Assembly (NCBI GenBank): GCA_963514005.1
Contig: OY740808.1
Location: 13,826,001 to 13,890,000 of the forward strand
Direction of reading: 5' to 3'
DNA: 64,000 nt
DNA from: Raja brachyura
Taxonomy: Eukaryota
Below the pieces are notes generated by a model, which had not been told where the DNA came from, searched no databases, and saw nothing but the letters and a program-made list of their open reading frames with translations. Both the position numbers and the translations under genes were made by a program. Shown piece by piece: positions 4,601 through 64,000 of this stretch. The stretch's first letter is position 1, and each line of letters opens with the position of its first letter.

Positions 4601-7600
4601 ACATCCATTCTTTGGTATGGCATTCCTTGCTCAATGCACTCTAGATAAACCCACACATGACTGCAACATCAAATTGCTAGACTGGTCCTCGGAAATTATG
4701 TAGATAGGAATTTTCACCACAGTTCATTTTACATGCATTATTAGTTCTAATATTACAACTCCGCTTTCTTTATTAAGGTAACTATGAATCACCGACTCGC
4801 AAGACTTTGTGAAAGTTTGTTGATTTGTAATGTCAACGGGAGATGTGCAAAGTCCAGACAACATCTTAGCTCATCACATTTCTGAATCAACAATTATTTA
4901 GCAATGCTCTTTGAACCTACAGCAGATCGAATGTGCAGGAGCTATAGTCTAGATTCTAGAACACGCAGGAGCTATAGTCTAGATTCTAGAACACGCAGGA
5001 GCTATAGTCTAGATTCTAGAACACGCAGGAGCTATAGTCTAGATTCTAGAACACGCAGGAGCTATAGTCTAGATTCTAGAACACGCAGGAGCTATAGTCT
5101 AGATTCTAGAACACATGAAGCGGTTATGAAATTGAGAGGTAATAGCTCACCCATGTCTCTGTTACCACTAGACTTGATTATTTCAATGCATTCCTGGCCT
5201 AATTTTAGACTTCAAAACTGGGAGGCAAATCAAGAATTCTGGCACCAACTTCTATTCAATCCAATGTGCTAACTGACATCTAATGATTTCTGGTTAGGAT
5301 TATTTCTCATTCTTGTTTCTCATTCTCACCACAGATGCTGCCTGGCCTGCTAAGTTTAGTTTAGAGAAACAGCGTGGAACAGGCCCTTCGGCCCACCGAG
5401 TCCATGCACACCAGCAATCCGCATACACTACCATTAACCTACACACTAGGGACATTTTACAATCTTTAACTTACAAACCTGTACATCCTTGAAGTGTGGG
5501 AGGAAACCGGAGCACCCGGGGAAAACCCATGTGGTTACGGAGAGAAGGTACAAACTTCGTACAGAAAACACCCGTAGTCAGGAATAAACCCAGGTCTCTA
5601 GTGCTGTAAGGCAGCAACTTCTGTTTTTATGTTTATAGAAACTTTCTCTTACTGAAGTCCCGATCTCACCTTGTGCAGCACCAGATCGATCAACCGAGCT
5701 CTGCTCTGATGCAAGCATTTCCATGAGCCAAGGCAGCAGGTTATCAAAGCAGGACTCGCCCATTCCCTTCACCATGGCTCCCAGAGCTTTTGCAGACACG
5801 GTACGAACCTGGTATTTGACAAAAGGACAAGTCATTGAATGAACAAGATCAGGCTGAAAAGCAAAACTTCCACACTCATGCCTTACAACACAGAATTCAA
5901 AGATTGAAGACAGTATCAGGTTCCATAATAGATTCGAATTTTGGTTCATTAACAGCACGGGTTAACCAGGGAGAGCTGCATCAACTCTTACGATTTAGGT
6001 ACTAAACCAGAACATTGATTAATTCTTAGTTCGAGCAATCATATGCCACAATGCATTTACTAAACTTGGCCAAATTCTCAATCATCAATGCATCTACTCA
6101 TCAGCTATTTCACATATTGTCATATTTTGCCAAGATATTGAAGGCAGCTGTTTGGCCAATCTAGCCGAACCCACCTCTCAGACAATCAGTCCTCATCCCC
6201 ATTTATTTAACTTTAGCCTTCAGGGAGTAATTTAAAGTGGCCAATTAACCTACCAGCATGTTTTTGGATTACAGGAAGAGACCCATAAGAAATCCACTGT
6301 CGTAGGGAGACTGCAAAGTCCACACAAAAAACATCCAAAGGTCGGATCAAACCTGGGTGATTGTGTGGCAGCAGCACAGCGATCACTGTGTTTAACAAGC
6401 AATTACCATTTTGGCTCCAGGTAATCACAATGATACCAACTGGGGAGAGCAAAGACTTACCTCTGGAACAGGGTCCAGCAGAGAAAGCTTCAATCCGGGC
6501 ATCACACTGGGCAGGTACGGTGCAAGATCCTGCAACCATGCCAATGGAAAATAATTAACAAGTCTGGTTTGATAACAACATTCAACTCATTAAGAAAAGA
6601 AAATGTTGAAATATACAGCAGTTCCAAAACATTACAACTCGCCAGCTGCTGCTTTACGGGCTCTTCCAGCATTTTCTAGTGCACAATTGCAATATCACAA
6701 TATTTTGTAATCTTACACTAGCTCGTCACAGTTAACTAAACACCTTACACTGTTTTGGTTAATTAGATTTGGAGCTGCACTGTGGATAAGGGGTAACCAG
6801 TGACGACCAGACTCAGACAGATTTCCAAAAAGCATTTCATAAAGTGCCACATCAGGTATTATTGTGAAAGGTTTACAGCAGTGTATTGGCATGGAAGGAA
6901 GAATAAATGGCTAATGCAAAGCAGAGAGTAGACATGAATGGGTGTTTTCTGGTTGGCCAGGTACAATAAGTGGTCTTGCACAGGAATTGGTGCTGGGACG
7001 TCAAGGTTTTTATTATAATTTAGATAAATGACGGATGAATTCACTGAAGGTCTGGTTGCTAAATTTACTTGTATCACAAGACAGAAGTCAAGCTGCGAAG
7101 AGGACGTATGGAGCAGATAGGTTTAAGTGGGCAACGATTGAGCAATAGGAATATCATGTAGGAAACTGAAAGAGCTTTTGGCAGGAAAAATAAAACTAAA
7201 ATAAAATAATGTGATTTAATTTACGGTTCATATGCAGGTACAGTTTATTGCAAAGAGAATTGAATACAAAACTAGAGATTATCTAGGCATTGGCAAAGCC
7301 ACAGCTGGAGTACGCTGCACAGTATTGGTCTATTTCAGGAAAGAGGTAAACATATTGGAATCAGTTCAGAGATGGTTTAGCTAGCAGAATGATATGTTGA
7401 ACCGTTCGGTTGTCTTCTAAGTGAAGACTGATTAGACTAGATGTACCTACTGGGGTTTTGGAGAGCAAGATGGGATTTAATTGAAACAGATTTTGACAGT
7501 TTTGCAGGGCAGAATATGGAGAGAATGTTTCCACTTGTGGGAAGATCTGGAAATAATTGTCCATTTCCAAGTAAGAGGGTGCCCGTATTAGTTATGAGAT

Positions 7601-49600: not shown

Positions 49601-52600
49601 TATAGCTTAGGCTATCCCTTTCAGACAATAATGCCTAAATAAGCTGTCAATATCCTACCAATGCGCTTCCCCAGTAAAGTGTTTGGCAAACATAAACCAC
49701 TCCACGGGGGTTCCCCTCTTCCATTATAGATGAGACTCTCCTTGATATCCCGCAGCTCTGCTCTTACTCCCTGTCCCCCTGGTCCTCACCTTCCATCCCA
49801 ACTAGGTGTCAACTTCTCTACATCGGTGAGACCAAGCGCAGGCTCGGCGATCGTTTCACTGAACACCGCCGCTCAATCCGTCTTAACCTACCTAATCCCG
49901 TGGTGGCTCAGCACTTCAACTCCCCCTCCCATTCCCAATCTGACAATGGAGGAAGCCCAGGACAGAAAGGTCAGAGTGAGGCCCAGCACAAATTGGAGGA
50001 ACGGCACCTCATATTTCGCTTGGGTAGTTTACACCCAAGCGCTATGAACATTGACTTCTCTAGCTTTCCATAGCCCTTGCTTTCCCTCTCCACCCCCCTC
50101 CCCCTTCCCAGTACTCCCACCAGTCTTACTGTCTCCGACCCGAAACGTTGCCAATTCCTTCTCCCCATAGATGCTGCCTCATCCACTGAGTTACTCCAGC
50201 ATTTTGTGTCAACCATTGCACTTATATCCAAGCAACTGCACTTGGCATCGCATCCAAGTTTAATGTCTTTGTTGCGCTTTCATACCTTGGATGGCCATTC
50301 TTGCAGGCGATTCCTGTTGACTGCAGACACTGCACTAGGTGTTTTGTCGTCGTCTCTGGATGACTTTCAGCCAGCTGCTGAATAACTGCCTGAAGAGCTC
50401 TTCGGGACGTTGCATCTCTGCCAAATAACAAGAAAGACTTTCACTGTGCCTTGATATATGTGATAATAATACACCAATACTAAATTCTTGATAATTGCTG
50501 TACTGCTCCATCTCACTTCAAATATTCCCACAGCCCATGCTGATGGAAGAGTTGCACTTGCACAGTGGAGAGTCTTCAGCAGCAGCCAGGCTGGATGAAG
50601 TTTGGGCAAATCCTTTTTGGGCAAAAGCTCATCCACACCTCTACTCTCTCAGGAAATTAGGTATATTTGGCACAACTCGAACAGCTTTCACCAGTTTCTA
50701 TCAATGCGGTGGAGATAGCATCCTATTAGGATGCATCGCAACTTGGTTTGGCAACAGCTCTGCCCAAGTCCGCAAGAAATTACAGAGTTGTGGACGCAGC
50801 CCAGTCCATCACACAAATCAGCCTCTCCTCAATGCCTCAGAAAAACACCCAACATAATCAAGGGCCACTTACACTCTGGCCATTCCCGCTTCTCCCCTCT
50901 CCTATCCTTACAAAAATGTACCACCAGAAGCAGACACTTCTTCCTCACTGTTATCACACTACTGAATAGGCTTCTCATAAGCCAAGGGTGTAGCCCAATC
51001 TCAAAACCTACCACACAGTGGCCATCACACAATTTGTATCTTCCATTTCTCTGGAGTTGTAGCAGCATAACGCTGTAGGACTATGTTCTACACGCTGGGA
51101 CAAAATCACCTCTGCCATTAGTTAGATTTGACCATTATCAGTTTAGGTTTGAAAATCTTTTTGTATTAAGTTCCTAAAAGTCCCAACTGATAAAGTGGCA
51201 AGGAAAACAAGACATCTGAAACCAAAATGAACAGAATAAGCAACTGTTCCTCAATTTAACCCCAACCAGAGTGAGGGTTGTGAAATGAACAATGGAAGGA
51301 CAAAGAAGGAAGTGTAAATTAAAGTGAAATGAAAAGAGAAAATGCTGGAAAAATGCAGTGGTCAGGCAACAGTTGTGAAGAAACATTAAAGGGAAAACAA
51401 GTTTCAAGTTACATGGAATGGATGCAAGGCAAGGCTGAAGTAACAAAAGGGAAAATCGATTAAAACATGTAGGACTGGAGAAATTAAATTGACAAAATGA
51501 ATGAAAACGTAGGTGATTTGATTAGCAACTTCACAGGTGACACAAAAATGGTTGTGGATAATGAGGAAGGTTGTCAAAGGATACAACAGGATATAGGTTA
51601 GTTGGAAATTTAGCAGAGAAGTAACAGATGGACATTAATCTAGACAAATATGAGGTGTTGCATTTTGGGAATACAACCGAAAAAGGATAGTTATGCAGTC
51701 AATGAAAAGGACCTTGTGGAGCATTGACTCAAATGGTACAAGTGCATAGCTACCCACAGTGGCAACACAAATGGGAAGAGTGGTGAACAAGGCGAACAGC
51801 ATGCTCGGCTTTATCGGTCAGAGCATTGACTTTCAAGGTAGCAAAGTCAAGTAGCAGCAGTAAAAATCTTTGGTTAGGGCACATTTGGAGTCTTTTGTGC
51901 ATGTCTGGACGCCACATTACAAGAAGAATGTGGAAGCATTGGAGAGGGTGCAGAAGCAACTCACCACCATGTTGCCTATAGTGGATGGAGTACATTTACA
52001 AGAGGTTGGACAAATTTGGTAGGCACAAAATGCTGGAGTAACTCATCGGGGCAGACAGCATCGCCGGTTTCGGGTTGAGACCCTTCTTCGATTTGGAGTG
52101 TTTTCTTTGGAACATCCAATGCAACAAGTATAATATTATTATGCACTGAAGTGATAGTAGTGCATAAATGTCAAAAACCAGACATGGTTTAAGGTGAGAT
52201 TGGGCAAAATGTAAAGGAGATGCGTGGGGCAAATTTTATTTTTTAAATATACAGTGGGTGGTGAGTACCTGTTACCAGGGATGATGGTGGAGGCAGATAT
52301 GATAGTGGAATTTAAGACACTTTTGGATAGCCACATGGATAGGGAGAGATAAGGATTATATGTGGGCTGATAAGAGCTCGTCTTGGCATCATGTTCACCA
52401 CAGACATTGAGGGCTGAAGAGCTTGTTCCTGTGCTGCGCTATATTCCATGTTCTATAACCCAAAGATACGAATAGCTACCTTCAGTTGGATTGTAGCATT
52501 ATAAAATACCCAGCAAAAACTGTATTAAGATAAACTATAAAACAAAACCAATAGCAATCTCAGGATTAGTAACATACAGTTGCTGTGGCTGCTGCTATAG

Positions 52601-58600: not shown

Positions 58601-59797
58601 GTCCATCAGTGAAACAAGAAACCGCAGAACAAATAGACAAATCAATATATTCCCATGAGGACTGTGTTCTATTAATCTCACAAACAGCGCACACTCTAGA
58701 GTTTACAGAAGGGTTACCAAAATGTTGCCTGGATTAGAGGGTATGAGTTACAGGCAGAGTTTGGACAAACTTGGATTGTTTTCTCTGGAATATGAGAGGC
58801 TGAGGGGAGATCTGATTGATACATATACAATTATGAGGAATAGACGGGAGAGAGAGCATCAGAACCGTTTATCTCTCTCCAAGGTGGATAAATGTCAGAC
58901 TAGATGGCTTAGCTCTCTGGTGAGAGGGGCAACATTTAAGGGATGTGAAGGGCAAGTTTTTTTCCCCCACAGAGAGTGGTAGGTGTCTTGGGTGGTGGTG
59001 GATGCAGATACAATAGTGGCATTTAATCAGCTTTTAAATAAGGCACATGGATGTGTAGGGAATGGAGGAACATAGATCACATCCAAGAAGAGGAATCTAA
59101 TTTACCCTGGCATCATGTTTGGCACACATTGCAGGCCAAAGAGCCTGTTCTGTGCTGTACTATTCCATGTTGTATGTTCACATTGAGTACATCCACTAAA
59201 AACTTTGAACATGAACTGGGATTTACCACATGAGCAAAAATAAACATTGTTATCTGCTCATTTTTTAATTCAACTCATCCTGAGTGTCTCAGCATCAAAT
59301 AACTCATCCTTGACCGGCATGTACCGTTTTCTCCGTTATAATTTATCTTTACTATCGATACATTTTATGTCTGTGTGTGTGTGTCGCTCTCTCTCTCGGA
59401 TCTGCAAAGTACATGTCACAGCTTTCCTCTGCCCCACTCCACCCCGTCACCCATTCTCTCCATTAAATTACCCTACTACAATCTCCTGCCAATCTTTCTC
59501 AGCAAAGAAATCCCCCTGGACCCTGTGGGTTCACGTTCAATCGATTCAGCCACTCATTCCTGGAGGTTTTGGCCCGTCGCCCCAACTCCAAGTCTCTCTC
59601 ACGCCCATTCCCCAACAGTGTACGTCTCGCTCACGCCCCCTATCTCAACCCGCCGGGTTACACCCTCTCCCTCGCTCATCCGTCTCTCAACCCCTTTGCT
59701 AACTCAGCCCGTCGCCTTGCACCAGACCGGTCACCAGTCCGAAGGTGATCAATTCAACTTTACTGCTGCCAGCACAGACCTGCGTGTCCGTCGCCAT
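1474..59797 (-). CDS. GCN1: GCN1 activator of EIF2AK4 (GCN2), multi-exon gene, exons 1-42; 3' part lies beyond the left edge
   Basis: 42 exons with GT-AG boundaries join in one frame (5480 nt) from [20 protein letters not shown] to LFDDNWRIR. Recognisable GCN1 motifs: [70 protein letters not shown]. Confidence 0.97.
1687..3301 (+). mobile_element. Tc1/mariner DNA transposon (IR/DR type), full length, transposase frameshifted
   Basis: TA|CAGTGCCCTC...GAGGGCACTG|TA. TIRs about 210 bp with inner direct repeats (about 1871 and 3069-3094). Transposase remnants at 2026-3038: HTH SVRDIS-like motif, [33 protein letters not shown] (DD34E). Confidence 0.95.
3304..3595 (+). mobile_element. Degraded CR1 3' fragment
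   Basis: ttggacaaactt...gacctgacaga...gggctgaaggacctgttcctgt motifs shared with other CR1 copies in the window. Confidence 0.7.
4255..4451 (-). CDS. GCN1: GCN1 exon 41
   Basis: [18 protein letters not shown]...[15 protein letters not shown]...IIPCILK. Confidence 0.96.
4935..5114. repeat. Perfect 30-bp minisatellite, 6 copies
   Basis: (GCAGGAGCTATAGTCTAGATTCTAGAACAC)x6 with no mismatches. Confidence 0.98.
5354..5620 (-). mobile_element. tRNA-derived SINE (HE1/V-SINE-like) with CR1-type tail
   Basis: tgtgggaggaaaccggagcacccgg..aaaaccca V-domain-like core and ggcccttcggccc tail. Related copies at about 6230-6390, 12955-13260, 21865-22085, 55570-55740, 60085-60210. Confidence 0.8.
5670..5808 (-). 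CDS. GCN1: GCN1 exon 40
   Basis: [21 protein letters not shown]...[10 protein letters not shown]. Confidence 0.96.
6461..6529 (-). CDS. GCN1: GCN1 exon 39
   Basis: [23 protein letters not shown]. Confidence 0.95.
6790..8130 (+). mobile_element. Old degraded CR1 ORF2 and 3' UTR, interrupted by a younger antisense CR1
   Basis: gatttccaaaaagcattt (DFQKAF) ... ctggagtac ... gaccttactcctgctcct-like 3' end; many stops and indels. Confidence 0.75.
7692..7988 (-). mobile_element. CR1 3' end with (TTTCTATG)n tail
   Basis: [20 protein letters not shown]...[10 protein letters not shown]; catagaaacatagaaacatagaaa tail. Confidence 0.92.
8242..8462 (-). CDS. GCN1: GCN1 exon 38
   Basis: [13 protein letters not shown]...[21 protein letters not shown]...SLTDQK. 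Confidence 0.96.
9275..9454 (-). CDS. GCN1: GCN1 exon 37
   Basis: [35 protein letters not shown]...RNPEIL. Confidence 0.96.
9955..10362 (+). mobile_element. CR1 3' end
   Basis: [22 protein letters not shown]...LPQKAVEA...; 3' UTR with gggccgaatggcc. Confidence 0.9.
10763..10877 (-). CDS. GCN1: GCN1 exon 36
   Basis: [38 protein letters not shown]. Confidence 0.96.
11121..11242 (-). CDS. GCN1: GCN1 exon 35
   Basis: [40 protein letters not shown]. Confidence 0.96.
12398..12644 (-). CDS. GCN1: GCN1 exon 34
   Basis: [16 protein letters not shown]...[19 protein letters not shown]...NFRRRE. Confidence 0.96.
13400..13555 (-). mobile_element. Ancient Deu-domain SINE relic (SacSINE1/AmnSINE1-like)
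   Basis: tctcatctgaaag...cagca..cc..gtactgc...gctaccaatgagcca pattern. Similar relics at about 14960-15345, 18130-18345, 18750-18930 (+), 21240-21400 (+). Recognised from memory of the consensus. Confidence 0.55.
13576..13770 (-). CDS. GCN1: GCN1 exon 33
   Basis: [14 protein letters not shown]...[43 protein letters not shown]. Confidence 0.96.
13850..14350 (-). mobile_element. Highly degraded CR1 fragment
   Basis: aacatccttgtagatcccttctgcatcctctctaatgcc...tatggcaaccaaa (antisense of QFWSP/ERVQRRF region). Confidence 0.6.
15507..15672 (-). CDS. GCN1: GCN1 exon 32
   Basis: [13 protein letters not shown]...[23 protein letters not shown]. Confidence 0.95.
16753..16823 (-). CDS. GCN1: GCN1 exon 31
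   Basis: [23 protein letters not shown](R). Confidence 0.95.
17476..17665 (-). CDS. GCN1: GCN1 exon 30
   Basis: [37 protein letters not shown]...YQEKLY. Confidence 0.95.
18537..18664 (-). CDS. GCN1: GCN1 exon 29
   Basis: [42 protein letters not shown]. Confidence 0.94.
18975..19156 (+). mobile_element. Penelope-like retroelement 3' fragment
   Basis: [23 protein letters not shown] (typical PLE ORF C-terminus) followed by a pyrimidine tract and a truncated cagtcagaagaaaggtctc terminus. Confidence 0.8.
19156..20560 (-). mobile_element. CR1 LINE RT fragment (about 1.4 kb), interrupted by a Penelope-terminus insertion
   Basis: [56 protein letters not shown]; tail catagaaacaaagaaacatagaaa. Confidence 0.93.
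19917..20027 (-). mobile_element. Short Penelope-type terminal repeat with hammerhead-like core
   Basis: Flanked by a 16-bp TSD with 1 mismatch (taccattcagataata 19901-19916, taccattccgataata 20028-20043). Minus strand contains CTGAAGAagggtctcgccccGAAACGTC. Confidence 0.85.
20660..21213 (+). mobile_element. RTE-clade LINE 3' fragment
   Basis: LYASETW...QRCLRKIL...ITNEE...[15 protein letters not shown], ending in a taagtctaagtaagtc tail. Confidence 0.88.
22088..22278. mobile_element. PIF/Harbinger-like MITE inserted in a SINE
   Basis: TAA|AGGGACTGTCCCACTTGGCGATTTT ... AAAATCGCCAAGGGGTTCAGGCCCT imperfect TIRs; right TSD not preserved. Confidence 0.7.
23073..23216 (-). CDS. GCN1: GCN1 exon 28
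   Basis: [48 protein letters not shown]. Confidence 0.95.
24960..25990 (+). mobile_element. Old degraded CR1 RT fragments
   Basis: [12 protein letters not shown] (YLDFSKAFDKV-like), ttagttagggcacacctagtgtactgtgtacaattc. Confidence 0.7.
26443..26523 (-). CDS. GCN1: GCN1 exon 27
   Basis: [27 protein letters not shown]. Confidence 0.94.
27729..27907 (-). CDS. GCN1: GCN1 exon 26
   Basis: [20 protein letters not shown]...HAQLRS...LIDE. Confidence 0.94.
28352..28507 (-). CDS. GCN1: GCN1 exon 25
   Basis: [26 protein letters not shown]...KVEA. Confidence 0.94.
29075..29273 (-). CDS. GCN1: GCN1 exon 24
   Basis: [20 protein letters not shown]...[15 protein letters not shown]...LKNL. Confidence 0.94.
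29600..30480 (-). mobile_element. Highly degraded CR1 fragment
   Basis: ctagtaaatattttctgcgccctctctagg, ttaaatttcatctgcat...gcccattcc and similar antisense CR1 RT motifs. Confidence 0.55.
30757..30870 (-). CDS. GCN1: GCN1 exon 23
   Basis: [38 protein letters not shown]. Confidence 0.95.
31275..31368 (-). CDS. GCN1: GCN1 exon 22
   Basis: [31 protein letters not shown]. Confidence 0.95.
32020..32560 (+). mobile_element. Rex1/Babar (L2-related) LINE 3' end
   Basis: [20 protein letters not shown]...[16 protein letters not shown]...[15 protein letters not shown]...NSFYP; 3' UTR ending cttggcaaataaacttactta. Confidence 0.88.
32767..32945 (-). CDS. GCN1: GCN1 exon 21
   Basis: [11 protein letters not shown]...[23 protein letters not shown]. 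Confidence 0.93.
34087..34211 (-). CDS. GCN1: GCN1 exon 20
   Basis: [26 protein letters not shown]...KNQ. Confidence 0.92.
35640..35829 (-). CDS. GCN1: GCN1 exon 19
   Basis: [13 protein letters not shown]...[14 protein letters not shown]...HHPSI. Confidence 0.92.
36449..36608 (-). CDS. GCN1: GCN1 exon 18
   Basis: [34 protein letters not shown]...NTHK. Confidence 0.94.
37291..37354 (-). CDS. GCN1: GCN1 exon 17
   Basis: [20 protein letters not shown], phase 1 to 2 fits neighbouring exons. Confidence 0.9.
37800..37892 (-). CDS. GCN1: GCN1 exon 16
   Basis: [30 protein letters not shown]. Confidence 0.94.
38909..39061 (-). CDS. GCN1: GCN1 exon 15
   Basis: [23 protein letters not shown]...LVDTQV. 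Confidence 0.94.
39499..39783. mobile_element. Foldback/MITE-like palindromic insertion with 121-bp inverted arms and 6-bp TSD
   Basis: Arms 39499-39619 and 39663-39783 are reverse complements at 120/121; 43-bp spacer; ATCGGT direct repeat at 39493-39498 and 39784-39789. Confidence 0.88.
40497..40670 (-). CDS. GCN1: GCN1 exon 14
   Basis: [19 protein letters not shown]...[13 protein letters not shown]. Confidence 0.95.
40879..40977 (-). CDS. GCN1: GCN1 exon 13
   Basis: [32 protein letters not shown]. Confidence 0.94.
41540..41590 (-). CDS. GCN1: GCN1 exon 12
   Basis: [16 protein letters not shown]. Confidence 0.93.
43135..43263 (-). CDS. GCN1: GCN1 exon 11
   Basis: [27 protein letters not shown]...LFAILG. 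Confidence 0.95.
43312..43826 (-). mobile_element. CR1 3' end
   Basis: [30 protein letters not shown]...GYGPNA; tail tatagagtcatagagtc. Confidence 0.9.
44050..44124 (-). CDS. GCN1: GCN1 exon 10
   Basis: [24 protein letters not shown]. Confidence 0.94.
44690..45290 (-). mobile_element. Rex1/Babar-like LINE 3' fragment with a nested Penelope terminus (about 44850-44945)
   Basis: Antisense TRLRNSFFP motif and tttttcactgcatctctgtacgtgacaataa 3' end; nested agtctgtagaagggtctcgacccgaaatgtcacc. Confidence 0.7.
45458..45566 (-). CDS. GCN1: GCN1 exon 9
   Basis: [36 protein letters not shown]. Confidence 0.94.
45893..45961 (-). CDS. GCN1: GCN1 exon 8
   Basis: [23 protein letters not shown]. Confidence 0.93.
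47419..47553 (-). CDS. GCN1: GCN1 exon 7
   Basis: [33 protein letters not shown]...NKHK. Confidence 0.92.
48181..48279 (-). CDS. GCN1: GCN1 exon 6
   Basis: [33 protein letters not shown]. Confidence 0.94.
49114..49222 (-). CDS. GCN1: GCN1 exon 5
   Basis: [22 protein letters not shown]...WIKM, AG/GT flanks. Confidence 0.93.
49705..50215 (+). mobile_element. Penelope-like element fragment (GIY-YIG endonuclease remnant plus terminal repeat)
   Basis: ctacatcggtgagaccaagcgcaggctcggcgatcgtttcactgaacac = [16 protein letters not shown]; [11 protein letters not shown]; [24 protein letters not shown]; followed directly by the gacccgaaacgttg...gatgctgcc...ctgagttactccagca terminus. Confidence 0.9.
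50286..50417 (-). CDS. GCN1: GCN1 exon 4
   Basis: [21 protein letters not shown]...KNGHP, AG/GT flanks. Confidence 0.95.
50530..51090 (+). mobile_element. Rex1/Babar-like LINE fragment
   Basis: [11 protein letters not shown]...[28 protein letters not shown]. Confidence 0.82.
51530..52455 (+). mobile_element. Degraded CR1 fragment with nested Penelope terminus (about 52020-52090)
   Basis: ttggttagggcacatttggag...ttggagagggtgcagaag...gggctgaagagcttgttcctgtgctg. Confidence 0.75.
52650..52713 (-). CDS. GCN1: GCN1 exon 3
   Basis: (D)[20 protein letters not shown](R), AG/GT flanks. Confidence 0.95.
53393..53495 (-). CDS. GCN1: GCN1 exon 2
   Basis: ttcag|[34 protein letters not shown]|gtaagt. 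Confidence 0.95.
54245..54563 (+). mobile_element. CR1 3' end
   Basis: [42 protein letters not shown]...[10 protein letters not shown]. Confidence 0.92.
55293..56277 (+). mobile_element. Two near-identical CR1 3' fragments (55293-55550 and 55741-56277) separated by a SINE remnant
   Basis: Shared block tgtttcaaagaaacatacagcatagtgaaaggcttggacag...attagtacaggtgtcag present twice. Confidence 0.85.
56290..56388. mobile_element. Tigger/pogo-like non-autonomous DNA element end
   Basis: ccgttatgaagaggtccattacgagggtttactg|TA resembles CAGTAAACCCTCG-type TIRs; only one end seen. Confidence 0.45.
58001..58085. repeat. (CTCTCC/CTCCC)n polypyrimidine microsatellite in GCN1 intron 1
   Basis: About 85 bp of pure C/T. 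Confidence 0.95.
58700..59175 (+). mobile_element. CR1 3' fragment
   Basis: [33 protein letters not shown]. Confidence 0.85.
59780..59797 (-). CDS. GCN1: GCN1 exon 1 (coding part)
   Basis: aaaATGGCG ACG GAC ACG CAG|gtctgt = MATDTQ; good Kozak context, CpG-rich surroundings. Confidence 0.93.
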
Positions 59798-61090: not shown

Positions 61091-62195
61091 ACGATATTAA
61101 ACCTAAATCCAAACCTTGTTAGGCTTGGTTCTGTGCTGTTTGATTCTGAGCATTCATGCAACAAGCCACCAATAATTTTAGTGCAAATACGCTCAATATC
61201 CTTCTCTTTTCTTATACTCCTCCAAACGTATGGGCGATGTTCAACCTATCTATTTCTCACCTAAGCAATTTTATACACATGTTATTACTTACAAATTTCA
61301 GTAACTCATTCAAATGGCAATTAGTTTACTTTGGGTGAGCTGGATATGGTCCTTACCCATAAGTACTTTCCAACAGAGGTCACCAATTAATAAAAACGTA
61401 TTTATCTTAACTGCCTTTGTCATTAGTTCCACATGGATTTTTAGCTGCTACCCCAAAGCCTGTGCCATACTCTGCACAGTTTTATCCTGTTTCTAGGGTA
61501 AAAATGTGCAAAAACGTGTATCATTAGGTGCTGAGGTTGGTGACGACAGCACATCTCTCCTTACCATTGAATGCATCATAAATCAATGCATTGCACATTT
61601 TTCCGTGACCCTGTCCAAACCTATGCTCAATGGTTCCATGTTCCAGAATGTATTGCATTAAGAAATCTACACTTCATTAGTACTCACTACTGAAAGTAGC
61701 TGAGGAAGATCCACACTGTTGAAGAATTCTTGCACTTCTTGCCTCTATCAATCCTATCAGATTGTCAACTGCTTGCAATATTGGATGGATCACAATTATG
61801 AGATATAACGCGTGCTCCAAGACCTCGTACAATCTTCAGGAGATGTTTTGATGCAGTGTTCTCTATTGCCAATAGAGTCTTTGTCACTATCTCTACCCGT
61901 ATGTGCCAATCAACTCCCCTCGGGTGTATCCAGCAAGCACTTGCCAGGCTTTTCCGCACTCCTACCTCTCTTTTCCACTTTTCTCCCCCATACTCCGTCA
62001 GTCTGAAAAAGGATCCTGACCTGAAAAGTTGTCTGCACATCCCCTCACCAGATTCTACCTGTCCCACAAATTCTCAGAAACTTTGTTTTTTTTGCTCATT
62101 CAACACCAGATGGTGCTGCACCGTTTGCATTGTGGCAACAGGTATAATGCTGCCCTCCAGTGGCCTCCTGTTGAATTGAATCATCAGTTATGTTG

Positions 62196-62747
62196 GGTGA
62201 CACAAAAAGCTGGAGAAACTCAGCGGGTGCAGCAGCACCTAAGGAGCGAAGGAGATAGGCGACGTTTCGGGTCGAGACCCTTCTTCAGACTGGTGCGTAG
62301 GGAGGAGGAGAACTTCTTCAAAGTAGGCATACCTTGAGGAGATATCGCAGTGGAGTAGACAAAGTGTTAAAGAAGGAACTGCAGATGCTGGAGAATCGAG
62401 GGTTACACAAAAAGCTGGAGAAACTCAGCGGGTGCAGCAGCACCTAAGGAGCAAAGGAGATAGGCGACGTTTCGGGTCGAGACCCTTCTTCAGACTGGTC
62501 TGCGTAGGGAGGAGGAGAACTTCTTCAAAGTAGGCATACCTTGAGGAGATATCGCAGTGGAGTAGACAAAGTGTTAAAGAAGGAACTGCAGATGCTGGAG
62601 AATCGAGGGTTACACAAAAAGCTGGAGAAACTCAGCGGGTGCAGCAGCATCTAAGGAGCGAAGGAGATAGGCGACGTTTCGGGTCGAGACCCTTCTTCAG
62701 ACTGGTGGGCTGAAGTCTGAAGAAGGGTCTCGACCCGAAACGTCGTC
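62196..62747 (-). mobile_element. Multimeric Penelope-terminus / retrozyme-like insertion (205 + 207 + about 95 bp units plus short inverted end), 14-bp TSD
   Basis: Units start at 62200, 62405 and 62612 and differ at only a few positions. CATCAGTTATGTTG duplicated at 62182-62195 and 62748-62761. Confidence 0.88.
62261..62288 (-). ncRNA. Minimal type I hammerhead ribozyme-like core (further copies 62466-62493 -, 62673-62700 -, 62717-62744 +)
   Basis: CUGAAGA-a-GGGU(cucg)ACCC-GAAA-C-GUC: conserved core boxes, helix II, palindromic ACGU in place of helix III, GUC triplet; helix I weak. Confidence 0.6.
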
Positions 62748-64000
62748 CATCAGTTATGTTGAATGTGTTGAAATGGGAAGAGTGAGAAAGTAACAGAGTA
62801 AAATCAATATAGAGTAAAATGAGACGATGAGGAAAAGAGAATGAGAGGTGAGCTTGGCTGCACGAGTATCCGTTTCTTATTATTTGAATGGCAGAATAAA
62901 AAGGATTTGTGACACAAATGATAAAAATTTGATCGAGACCAATCCACAGAGCAGAAACAATAAGAATGAAACTGTTGATTCTCACAGAAACTAAGCTGGT
63001 TAGCACAGCAGTTAGTGATATAGAAATGTATCAGGGTAGATGTGAAGAAGATTTCCTCTTTTGTTTAGAAATGAAGAATACCTACTTAAGACAGTGATGA
63101 TGCAAGTTTTTTCTCAGAATCCATGCCTTTGAAGGCATTCTCAAAGGGTGGTGGAAATGCAGTGTATATATATTTCTAAATGCTAGATATGTACTTGAAT
63201 ACCCTATCTTGATCCGTTTTGGATGTTGGAAATAGGTGAGAAACTGTTGTTATTCAGTAGGGGGTGAGGTGAATATCCTTTTCCTCTTGCAAAAAAAAAG
63301 GCAAACACTTAGCCAAGTTTATGGAGGCAGGTAAAAACAATATGGCATCTGTACTTTAATAGCAGTGTGAACAATCTTTCTGTAAACATTGAAGATGGAC
63401 TGCGTGCCAAATGAATTTGGCCTTTGCACAAGACCATGACCTAAAGTGGTTTAGAAATCAAATAGTTTTCTCTGTCACTGGTAACTTTTCATGAGAAGGC
63501 TATACCTCAAATATGATCCAAAGGCAGTCACAAGTTTGGTGCAACTCTAGGGGATGAGGACTCGACACAGAGAAGCACTGCGTTTGTGAACATCACACAA
63601 TCATATGGCAAACAAAAATGAAGTTCGATCACATTTAACTTTCCATTCCAAATTTAAAATCAATAAATCCCACCTCATATTCCAACTTGGAGAATTTAGA
63701 TATAATTAAGGAAATAGCTGAACTCAAAAACACGTATCATAATGATTGAATAGTTAAAACTTTTTCTGGCATATTGAATCTTGGGATCCTTATCGTTGTC
63801 TGAAGATCACAGTCCGCAATTCTGTTTGACTCAAAAAACAAAATTTATTTTGCTTATAGATTATACATGAAAATAAATAGTTTTGAAGGGCAGGAGAGGG
63901 TAGGAAAGAGACGTTTATTACAAAGGAAATGTCCATGATAGGGTCAATGGAAATGGCTTGATGTCGGCCGCTGGTACAACTTTAAGGTCTTTGTCTGTGT

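Follow-up and report, generated by a model that had tools for sequence, protein, structure and literature searches.

A short tandem Penelope-derived insert upstream of GCN1 in Raja brachyura that resembles a retrozyme and was probably made by a stuttering reverse transcriptase

Introduction

Inverted and partially tandem terminal-repeat (pLTR) structures are standard for Penelope-like elements (PLEs; PMC3846280), among which Neptune and Nematis are defined by a CX2-5CxxC linker between the reverse transcriptase (RT) and the endonuclease (EN) (PMC8557442). The available portions of two studies of the minimal hammerhead ribozymes of PLEs describe weak cleavage in vitro, likely as dimers, and a helix I of 2 bp in D. 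virilis (PMC4209133, PMC6765202). Non-LTR retrozymes have been described with canonical hammerheads and abundant circRNAs (PMC7229834), and a 2026 preprint places them in 20 of 31 vertebrate genomes, including one chondrichthyan, and links them to pLTRs (bioRxiv 10.64898/2026.07.22.740005). The same preprint records cleavage in one of nine retrozymes tested, and its supplementary tables may list repeats similar to the one considered here. Two further systems concern the behavior of RT at the end of its template: the R2 RT makes end-to-end template jumps with untemplated bases (PMC3414825), and an extra G at the 5' junctions of L1 insertions marks capped 5' ends and has been read as a copied cap (PMC11702581).

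Here we consider an insert in a 64,000-nt stretch of the Raja brachyura assembly (GCA_963514005.1, contig OY740808.1, positions 13,826,001 to 13,890,000; hereafter the window). A sequence-only reading had taken it for a retrozyme-like multimer not known to have been characterised in cartilaginous fish, a view that no longer holds, since tandem hammerhead repeats have already been reported in one chondrichthyan genome and traced to Penelope pLTRs, according to the part of the preprint available (bioRxiv 10.64898/2026.07.22.740005). Its non-coding sequence reproduces, 2.5 times over, the ~200 nt at the 5' end of an autonomous PLE. We suggest that it was probably made in one reaction, in which the RT reached the 5' end of a short linear RNA and on two occasions jumped back to its 3' end.

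Results and Discussion

Structure of the insert

Element positions are numbered from the C of CUGAAGA (position 0), with the predicted cut after +27 and the ATG at +163; coordinates are collected in Table 1.

Table 1. Features of the insert and its target-site duplications (TSDs), in window coordinates.
Feature	Position	Strand	Basis or remark
TSD, left copy, 14 bp	62182..62195	.	perfect duplication
3'-most terminal-repeat copy, element -6 to +92	62196..62294	-	ends at the family's commonest 3' end
Hammerhead core 1 (minimal type I), predicted to cut after 62261	62261..62288	-	motif pattern
205-bp unit junction: ORF +197 joined to -6 through one extra base	62295..62295	-	sequence comparison
Middle copy (element -7 to +197), with hammerhead and terminal repeat, then tail, 5' UTR, ATG at 62330 and 11 codons	62296..62500	-	
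Hammerhead core 2 (minimal type I), predicted to cut after 62466	62466..62493	-	motif pattern
207-bp unit junction: ORF +197 joined to -7 through two extra bases	62501..62502	-	sequence comparison
5'-most direct copy, element -6 to +197, ATG at 62537	62503..62706	-	parent comparison
Minimal type I hammerhead core 3, predicted to be hairpin-trapped by the inverted piece in read-through RNA	62673..62700	-	
7-nt spacer unmatched in the parent element	62707..62713	.	
Inverted 5' piece covering element -3 to +28 and comprising just the hammerhead core	62714..62745	+	
TSD, right copy, 14 bp	62748..62761	.	perfect duplication

The insert (62196-62747) is 552 bp long and non-coding apart from 11 codons of the parent ORF. 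Read along the element, it consists of an inverted piece (+28 to -3), 7 spacer bases, a copy from -6 to +197, two bases, a copy from -7 to +197, one base, and a last copy from -6 to +92. Its outline is as first described: perfect 14-bp TSDs on either side (62182-62195, 62748-62761), units arranged head to tail with periods of 205 and 207 bp and an incomplete third, a 32-bp inverted copy at the right end (62714-62745), and no RT, the 11 codons being all that is left of the parent ORF. The ~80-nt segment that had not been seen in the other copies is the tail, the 5' UTR and the first 11 codons of the parent Penelope element; it runs on into the reading frame elsewhere, and it occurs at 39 other places at 100% identity over 105 nt, among 40 scored of 1293 candidates. 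The earlier view of a single insertion driven by a Penelope RT is supported, and the insertion is young: the three repeats depart from the family's commonest letters at three positions only. Because the 3' end of the insert is the commonest in the family, it is likely where the RT started.

The insert appears to stand alone in its exact form. Both of its exact junctions were found nowhere else in the 2.7-Gb genome (two matches, both the insert's own), and no parent or sibling copy with either junction was found there. In a search for a source copy, an extra C after ORF +197 was met at five other places, none of which has the junction of this insert or the variant A50G; A50G itself is present at 111 places in the genome, which in so large a family is compatible with recurrent mutation. 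The junction forms do match recurrent classes, a C preceding -6 in 5/9 and an A preceding -7 in 5/14, and the 207-bp junction is one substitution away from a form present at a few other loci. The proposal of a separate non-autonomous element is not borne out: the junctions are unique in 2.7 Gb, and loci that share junctions among themselves differ in subfamily variants or are a segmental duplicate. Uniqueness of the multimer to this locus, which the sequence-only reading had named as evidence against itself, holds for the sequence but not for the architecture, of which there are 135 junctions genome-wide.

A50G is present in the two adjacent 3' repeats and absent from the 5'-most one, and A89C is in the last repeat only, whereas a single RNA should have given all three repeats the same letter; moreover, the two junctions have one extra C in common and differ by a plain 2-nt deletion, so that they may have been identical at first. 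Both points weigh against a stuttering RT. They fit an alternative in which one RT jump gave an ordinary one-junction dimer like the ~130 others, and unequal crossover between +50 and +89 (or slippage) between its direct repeats later added the third copy, followed by the loss of two bases at one junction. The direct repeats of such a precursor would have been 99 bp long, and local amplification of a PLE terminus has been proposed, in the portion of the preprint available (bioRxiv 10.64898/2026.07.22.740005). Later duplication requires, however, a 2-nt deletion exactly at the junction in an insert with only about four other changes, and mixed junctions also occur where no duplication could start (L245). 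We regard it as unlikely but as the main rival, the distribution of A50G and A89C being what earns it serious consideration. That an assembly artefact duplicated a unit is scarcely credible. No public contig bridges the insert (in four of 21 public contig sets, compared over 61700-62400, one contig runs 19 letters past the left TSD into the insert, the bridging threshold being 31), but the units differ at the junction and at three sites, the TSD is perfect, and the family contains 27 other multi-junction inserts.

The neighboring gene is GCN1, as had been proposed, and lies on the minus strand: the exon at 12348-12644 matches yeast GCN1 (PDB 7NRC, E 5.9e-9) and there are HEAT Pfam hits, a first search with the N-terminal exon having given no match. 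We take the ATG at 59797, 2.4 kb from the insert, to be the GCN1 start codon. As the insert lies ~2.4 kb upstream of this likely start and in the same orientation, its putative internal start site would face the gene. The window also holds ~18 older fragments of the insert's terminal repeat, a Penelope copy of greater age that is truncated at its 5' end, keeps a terminal repeat and a remnant of GIY-YIG, and sits in an intron of GCN1 (49696-50214), and a perfect minisatellite of six 30-bp units, likewise intronic (4935-5114).

The parent element

The repeat unit of the insert is the 5' end of a PLE that is found as tandem 4043-bp units at locus L033 (G000:C2:3635500-3645400). The N-terminal frame of this parent begins at the same ATG as in the insert and is followed by RT, a CX4CxxC linker and GIY-YIG; the frame is interrupted once in the L033 copy, which as our reference also carries variants of its own at +41/+42. 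The RT and C-terminal GIY-YIG motifs are visible in translation, with Pfam matches (RVT_1, E 3e-4; GIY-YIG, E 7e-4) that are both below the curated cut-offs. CX4CxxC upstream of GIY-YIG fits the linker by which Neptune and Nematis are recognized (CX2-5CxxC between RT and EN), and the parent family has a pLTR with hammerhead, a tail, and tandem as well as inverted copies, as expected of EN+ PLEs. Judged by these motifs, the parent is an endonuclease-bearing PLE of Neptune/Nematis build; it is a young, autonomous Penelope-like element.

Near-full-length parent arrays are present at L033 and L034, with periods of 4043 and 3930 bp, the single ORF being broken in each between the N-terminal part and the RT. 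In the L033 element, a pyrimidine tract and CAG lie just 5' of the hammerhead (-30 to -1) and resemble a splice acceptor, and the context of the ATG (+159 to +168) is donor-like; a back-spliced junction between the acceptor-like site at -1 and the donor-like ATG site was seen in 0/6. The sequence round -3 is, by resemblance, a putative pol II initiator.

The hammerhead motif

Each unit carries a minus-strand core as first read, the last base of GUC falling at 62673, 62466 and 62261, and a fourth core lies on the plus strand in the inverted piece. These four are the only cores in the 64-kb window, all inside the insert, and 20 shuffled versions of the window contained none. The motif matches a minimal PLE type I hammerhead in its features (core boxes, an extra base before helix II, a G10.1-C11.1 pair and a palindromic helix III), so that its earlier description as a minimal, dimer-type ribozyme stands, as does the caution over helix I, which has 2 bp only. 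Across 217 copies, pairs 1 and 2 of helix I are formed in 98% and 92% and pairs 3 and 4 in 12% and 19%; helix II is identical in 188 of these copies, and the remainder show nearly all one-sided changes. An Rfam search returned no hammerhead at the insert, such minimal variants not being modelled in Rfam, and the folding of the predicted 205-nt monomer is no more stable than that of shuffles (z -0.16). Release of a 207-nt monomer, as had been proposed, is doubtful: in a read-through transcript, prediction has the inverted end base-paired to the first hammerhead (core 3), which would leave the 205-nt monomer as the only plausible one.

Junctions across the genome

With a looser pattern, the architecture of the insert recurs in 135 junctions of the same type genome-wide, 100 of them listed. 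From 90 regions taken, 96 junctions in 87 loci were parsed, the window included; three loci lacked exact anchors. On the hammerhead side, 84/96 junctions start at -7 to -2, in samples picked by exact patterns that favor young copies and leave out starts beyond -2. On the ORF side, 76/96 end at +197 to +204. For ends in the range +174 to +204, ~80 among the 100 matches listed end after +194 by a count made by eye, and ranges of equal width gave 6 matches upstream (ends ~+158 to +188) and 32 downstream (+225 to +255), which together mark ~+200 as a hot spot. Another 230 matches near the tail mix true joints with chance neighbors and were left out of the counts.

Three features of these junctions point to the nature of the template. 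An extra G precedes 70/109 starts at -2 to -4 (233 distinct hammerhead contexts; p 4e-11) and none of 29 copies continuous with the 3' UTR; untemplated bases, 1-10 in number, occur in 56/81 single-junction inserts; and the two terminal repeats of one insert share variants 23 times against 3.4 expected (maximum 10 in 5000 shuffles, 52 inserts), G41A being in both repeats of 10 inserts and in one repeat of none. Such sharing indicates that one template serves both repeats, and together with the junction positions and the extra G it suggests a short linear RNA that the RT copied as far as the 5' end and then entered once more from the 3' end. The related inserts bear the hallmarks of Penelope integration: 3' ends at +88 to +95 in 58/87 and at +126 to +132 in 25/87, TSDs of 13-15 bp in 44/87 and of at least 8 bp in 70/87, and 5' inversions in 24/87.

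Most junctions are locus-specific, and twelve forms recur. Secondary spread of the recurrent forms, considered over ten locus pairs, was set aside: one pair is a segmental duplicate (L123/L124) and the rest have unrelated flanks and, where scored, mostly different variants. L123 and L124 (G000:C18, 228 kb apart) are 99.9% identical over 1632 bp and represent a recent segmental duplication or an assembly duplicate.

A smaller group of junctions starts at the predicted cut site. Eight loci start exactly at +28, versus eight over the whole of +3 to +27, and within about +12 to +42 (classed partly by eye) the figure is 9/34 loci, above a downstream smear of 1.6 per position (Poisson 5e-5; 7e-4 after 14 positions). 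An untemplated G on a +29 end could add to the +28 count, with the step still at the cut. Some 30 loci start at or just after the cut versus ~150 upstream, or roughly one in six; among inserts sampled irrespective of junctions, 11/20 terminal-repeat inserts start at -4 to +6 and none at +28. This minority of junctions would constitute indirect evidence that the hammerhead cleaves in vivo. In the literature searched, which covered few subscription papers, we found neither this class of short-unit junctions described nor any junctions that begin where a PLE hammerhead cuts.

Multimers of the family

Counting the window insert, 28 multi-junction inserts were inspected, of which 17 repeat one junction and 11, the window insert among them, have differing junctions; 9 of these 11 re-use one ORF end within 2 nt. 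In 11/28 the repeated unit has no hammerhead core, so that tandem formation needs no ribozyme. Nine multimers (L025, L121, L141, L143, L144, L223, L224, L242 and L245) have none of the terminal redundancy needed for later duplication and hence were multimeric when inserted. Identical-junction multimers are mostly blunt, with untemplated bases in at most 3/13 that bear hammerheads vs 56/81 single junctions (Fisher p 0.004), which argues against descent from genomic dimers through ribozyme-made circles, as the extra bases would have been passed on. Circles closed by ligation, or jumps of great precision, remain compatible with them, the circles at least as well as the jumps, and in this respect the 17/28 count against a stuttering RT.

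Could the window insert itself have come from such a circle? An RT would have rolled round a closed molecule ligated, with no ribozyme, from the two ends of a short transcript, the 2-nt difference being an RT slip or a later mutation. Blunt identical junctions repeated three to six times in L025, L121, L141, L144 and L260 fit this, as does the scarcity of untemplated bases just noted; but the two junctions of the insert are unlike and include extra bases, ligation of a 5' end is not possible while it is capped, and the back-spliced version was sought with the result given above (0/6). We hold a ligated circle to be improbable for this locus.

Several other multimers are worth recording. L242, L245 and L296 (also L260, L266, L283 and L295) consist of tandem, ribozyme-less 168-180-bp units that start at or near the cut site, and are candidates for copies of a 3' cleavage product. 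In the runs of 32-57-nt units at L125, L127, L048 and L272, every unit stops at one ORF position near +200, as though a single RNA end had been entered again and again. Finally, L121 (G000:C16:54534371-54535551), L141 and L144 are tandems of four to six junctions with intact hammerheads and identical junctions, and are better retrozyme candidates than the window insert.

A stuttering reverse transcriptase

We propose that the template of the window insert was a prematurely ended transcript that started at the initiator-like site just upstream of the hammerhead and ended at ~+200, as the DNA junctions would have it. This ~205-nt RNA would likely have been capped at its 5' end. The GIY-YIG domain would cut the target, and the RT would start inside the terminal repeat, as it does in vitro for the anole PLE. 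On reaching the 5' end of the RNA, the RT would add or read 0-2 extra bases and re-prime on the 3' end of the same RNA, twice over, and the inverted piece would come from second priming. The ribozyme would have no role in making the tandem.

The sequence-only reading had given the ribozyme that role, with copying round a ribozyme-made circle. Such copying gives identical joints, which the two joints here are not; they fall 34-35 nt from the cut and precede the hammerhead by 6-7 nt, and the circle is left unsupported. A true retrozyme would further call for a lost or unassembled genomic dimer that was transcribed, cut at two hammerheads, circularised and reverse-transcribed by a Penelope RT. 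Each unit does have an intact core, the family's hammerhead seems to cut in vivo (the 9/34 loci at +28), the 207 junction has its near relatives one substitution away, and circular templates have been proposed for PLEs in the portion of the source available (PMC4209133). Set against this are the two differing junctions with no parent or sibling in the genome, the hammerhead-less multimers of the same build, the rarity with which multimers inherit the untemplated bases that most genomic dimers carry, and a helix I of 2 bp in a predicted monomer that folds no better than shuffles. We therefore think a retrozyme origin very improbable.

Descriptively, the insert shares with retrozymes tandem units within 150-450 bp, each with a complete type I hammerhead motif, a TSD longer than 4 bp and the absence of protein. 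It fails three retrozyme tests: it has no canonical hammerhead with a 6-bp helix I and loop contacts, as in the 2020 description; it has no family of its own at several loci, its junctions being unique and other shared junctions differing in subfamily variants; and its monomers, at 205 and 207 nt, differ at the joint. No spread retrozyme family based on its unit was found in the genome. The best reading is a stuttering-RT Penelope insertion that resembles a retrozyme; it is possibly the seed of one, with no offspring seen. We note that "tandem units with hammerheads" is then insufficient to call a retrozyme.

Taken alone, the locus is ordinary debris of a known retrotransposon class, a dead-end insertion. 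The junction class to which it belongs bears on two open points in the literature, namely the origin of Penelope tandem terminal repeats and in vivo cutting by minimal hammerheads. Over a hundred similar one-off inserts likely record where the RNA of the element starts, where it ends and where it is cut by the ribozyme. Going further, and more tentatively, since we would stop a little short of even confidence in the whole, the junctions may be read as a fossil record of the Penelope cycle in vivo: RT starting in the terminal repeat, a capped start just 5' of the hammerhead, a jump to the 3' end of a ~205-nt transcript that was perhaps trimmed to the footprint of the protein, and tandems that arise without a ribozyme circle. 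About one in six templates would begin at or after the cut, so that a hammerhead with a 2-bp helix I would cleave in the germ line, and the jump would be the birth of pLTR-derived retrozymes. The junctions predict RNA 5' ends at -7 to -2 and at +28, a 3' end at ~+200, and end-to-end RT jumping, and hence offer a useful and testable window on Penelope replication.

Comparison with known systems

These comparisons refer to the available portions of the sources cited. The closest likeness is to EN+ PLEs of the Neptune/Nematis type (Craig et al., 2021, PMC8557442; Arkhipova et al., 2013, PMC3846280), with which the insert and its family share the hammerhead pLTR, partial tandems, an inverted 5' piece and a TSD, an optional 30-40-bp tail, and a parent that combines RT, a CX2-5CxxC linker and GIY-YIG. 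The difference is that those descriptions concern partial tandems of 5'-truncated or full copies, whereas here the unit is the 5' ~200 nt and the junctions are locus-specific. Frangieh et al. (2024, PMC11167929) showed for the Poseidon PLE of Anolis that the tail is defined by a pair of internal RT start sites, which match the 3' ends of our inserts (+88 to +95 and +126 to +132). The portion of that study covered reports no RNA reads ending at the hammerhead cut, whereas DNA junctions peak at the cut site here; nor does it take up template jumping or tandem formation.

Non-LTR retrozymes (Cervera and de la Pena, 2020, PMC7229834; Li et al., 2026) are similar in their short, non-coding tandem units with type I hammerheads, long TSD and PLE pLTR origin, and the insert would pass the motif-in-tandem definition of 2026 (Li et al., 2026, bioRxiv 10.64898/2026.07.22.740005). 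It differs from these retrozymes in its minimal PLE-type ribozyme with a 2-bp helix I, its single locus and its non-identical joints. R2 template jumps and SIDEs (Eickbush and Eickbush, 2012, PMC3414825) offer a parallel in the RT jump from an RNA 5' end to another 3' end, in the untemplated bases and in short, internally deleted derivatives. In contrast with SIDEs, which persist as families (PMC3414825), the jump here seems to lead back to the one short RNA from which it set out, and the products are one-offs.
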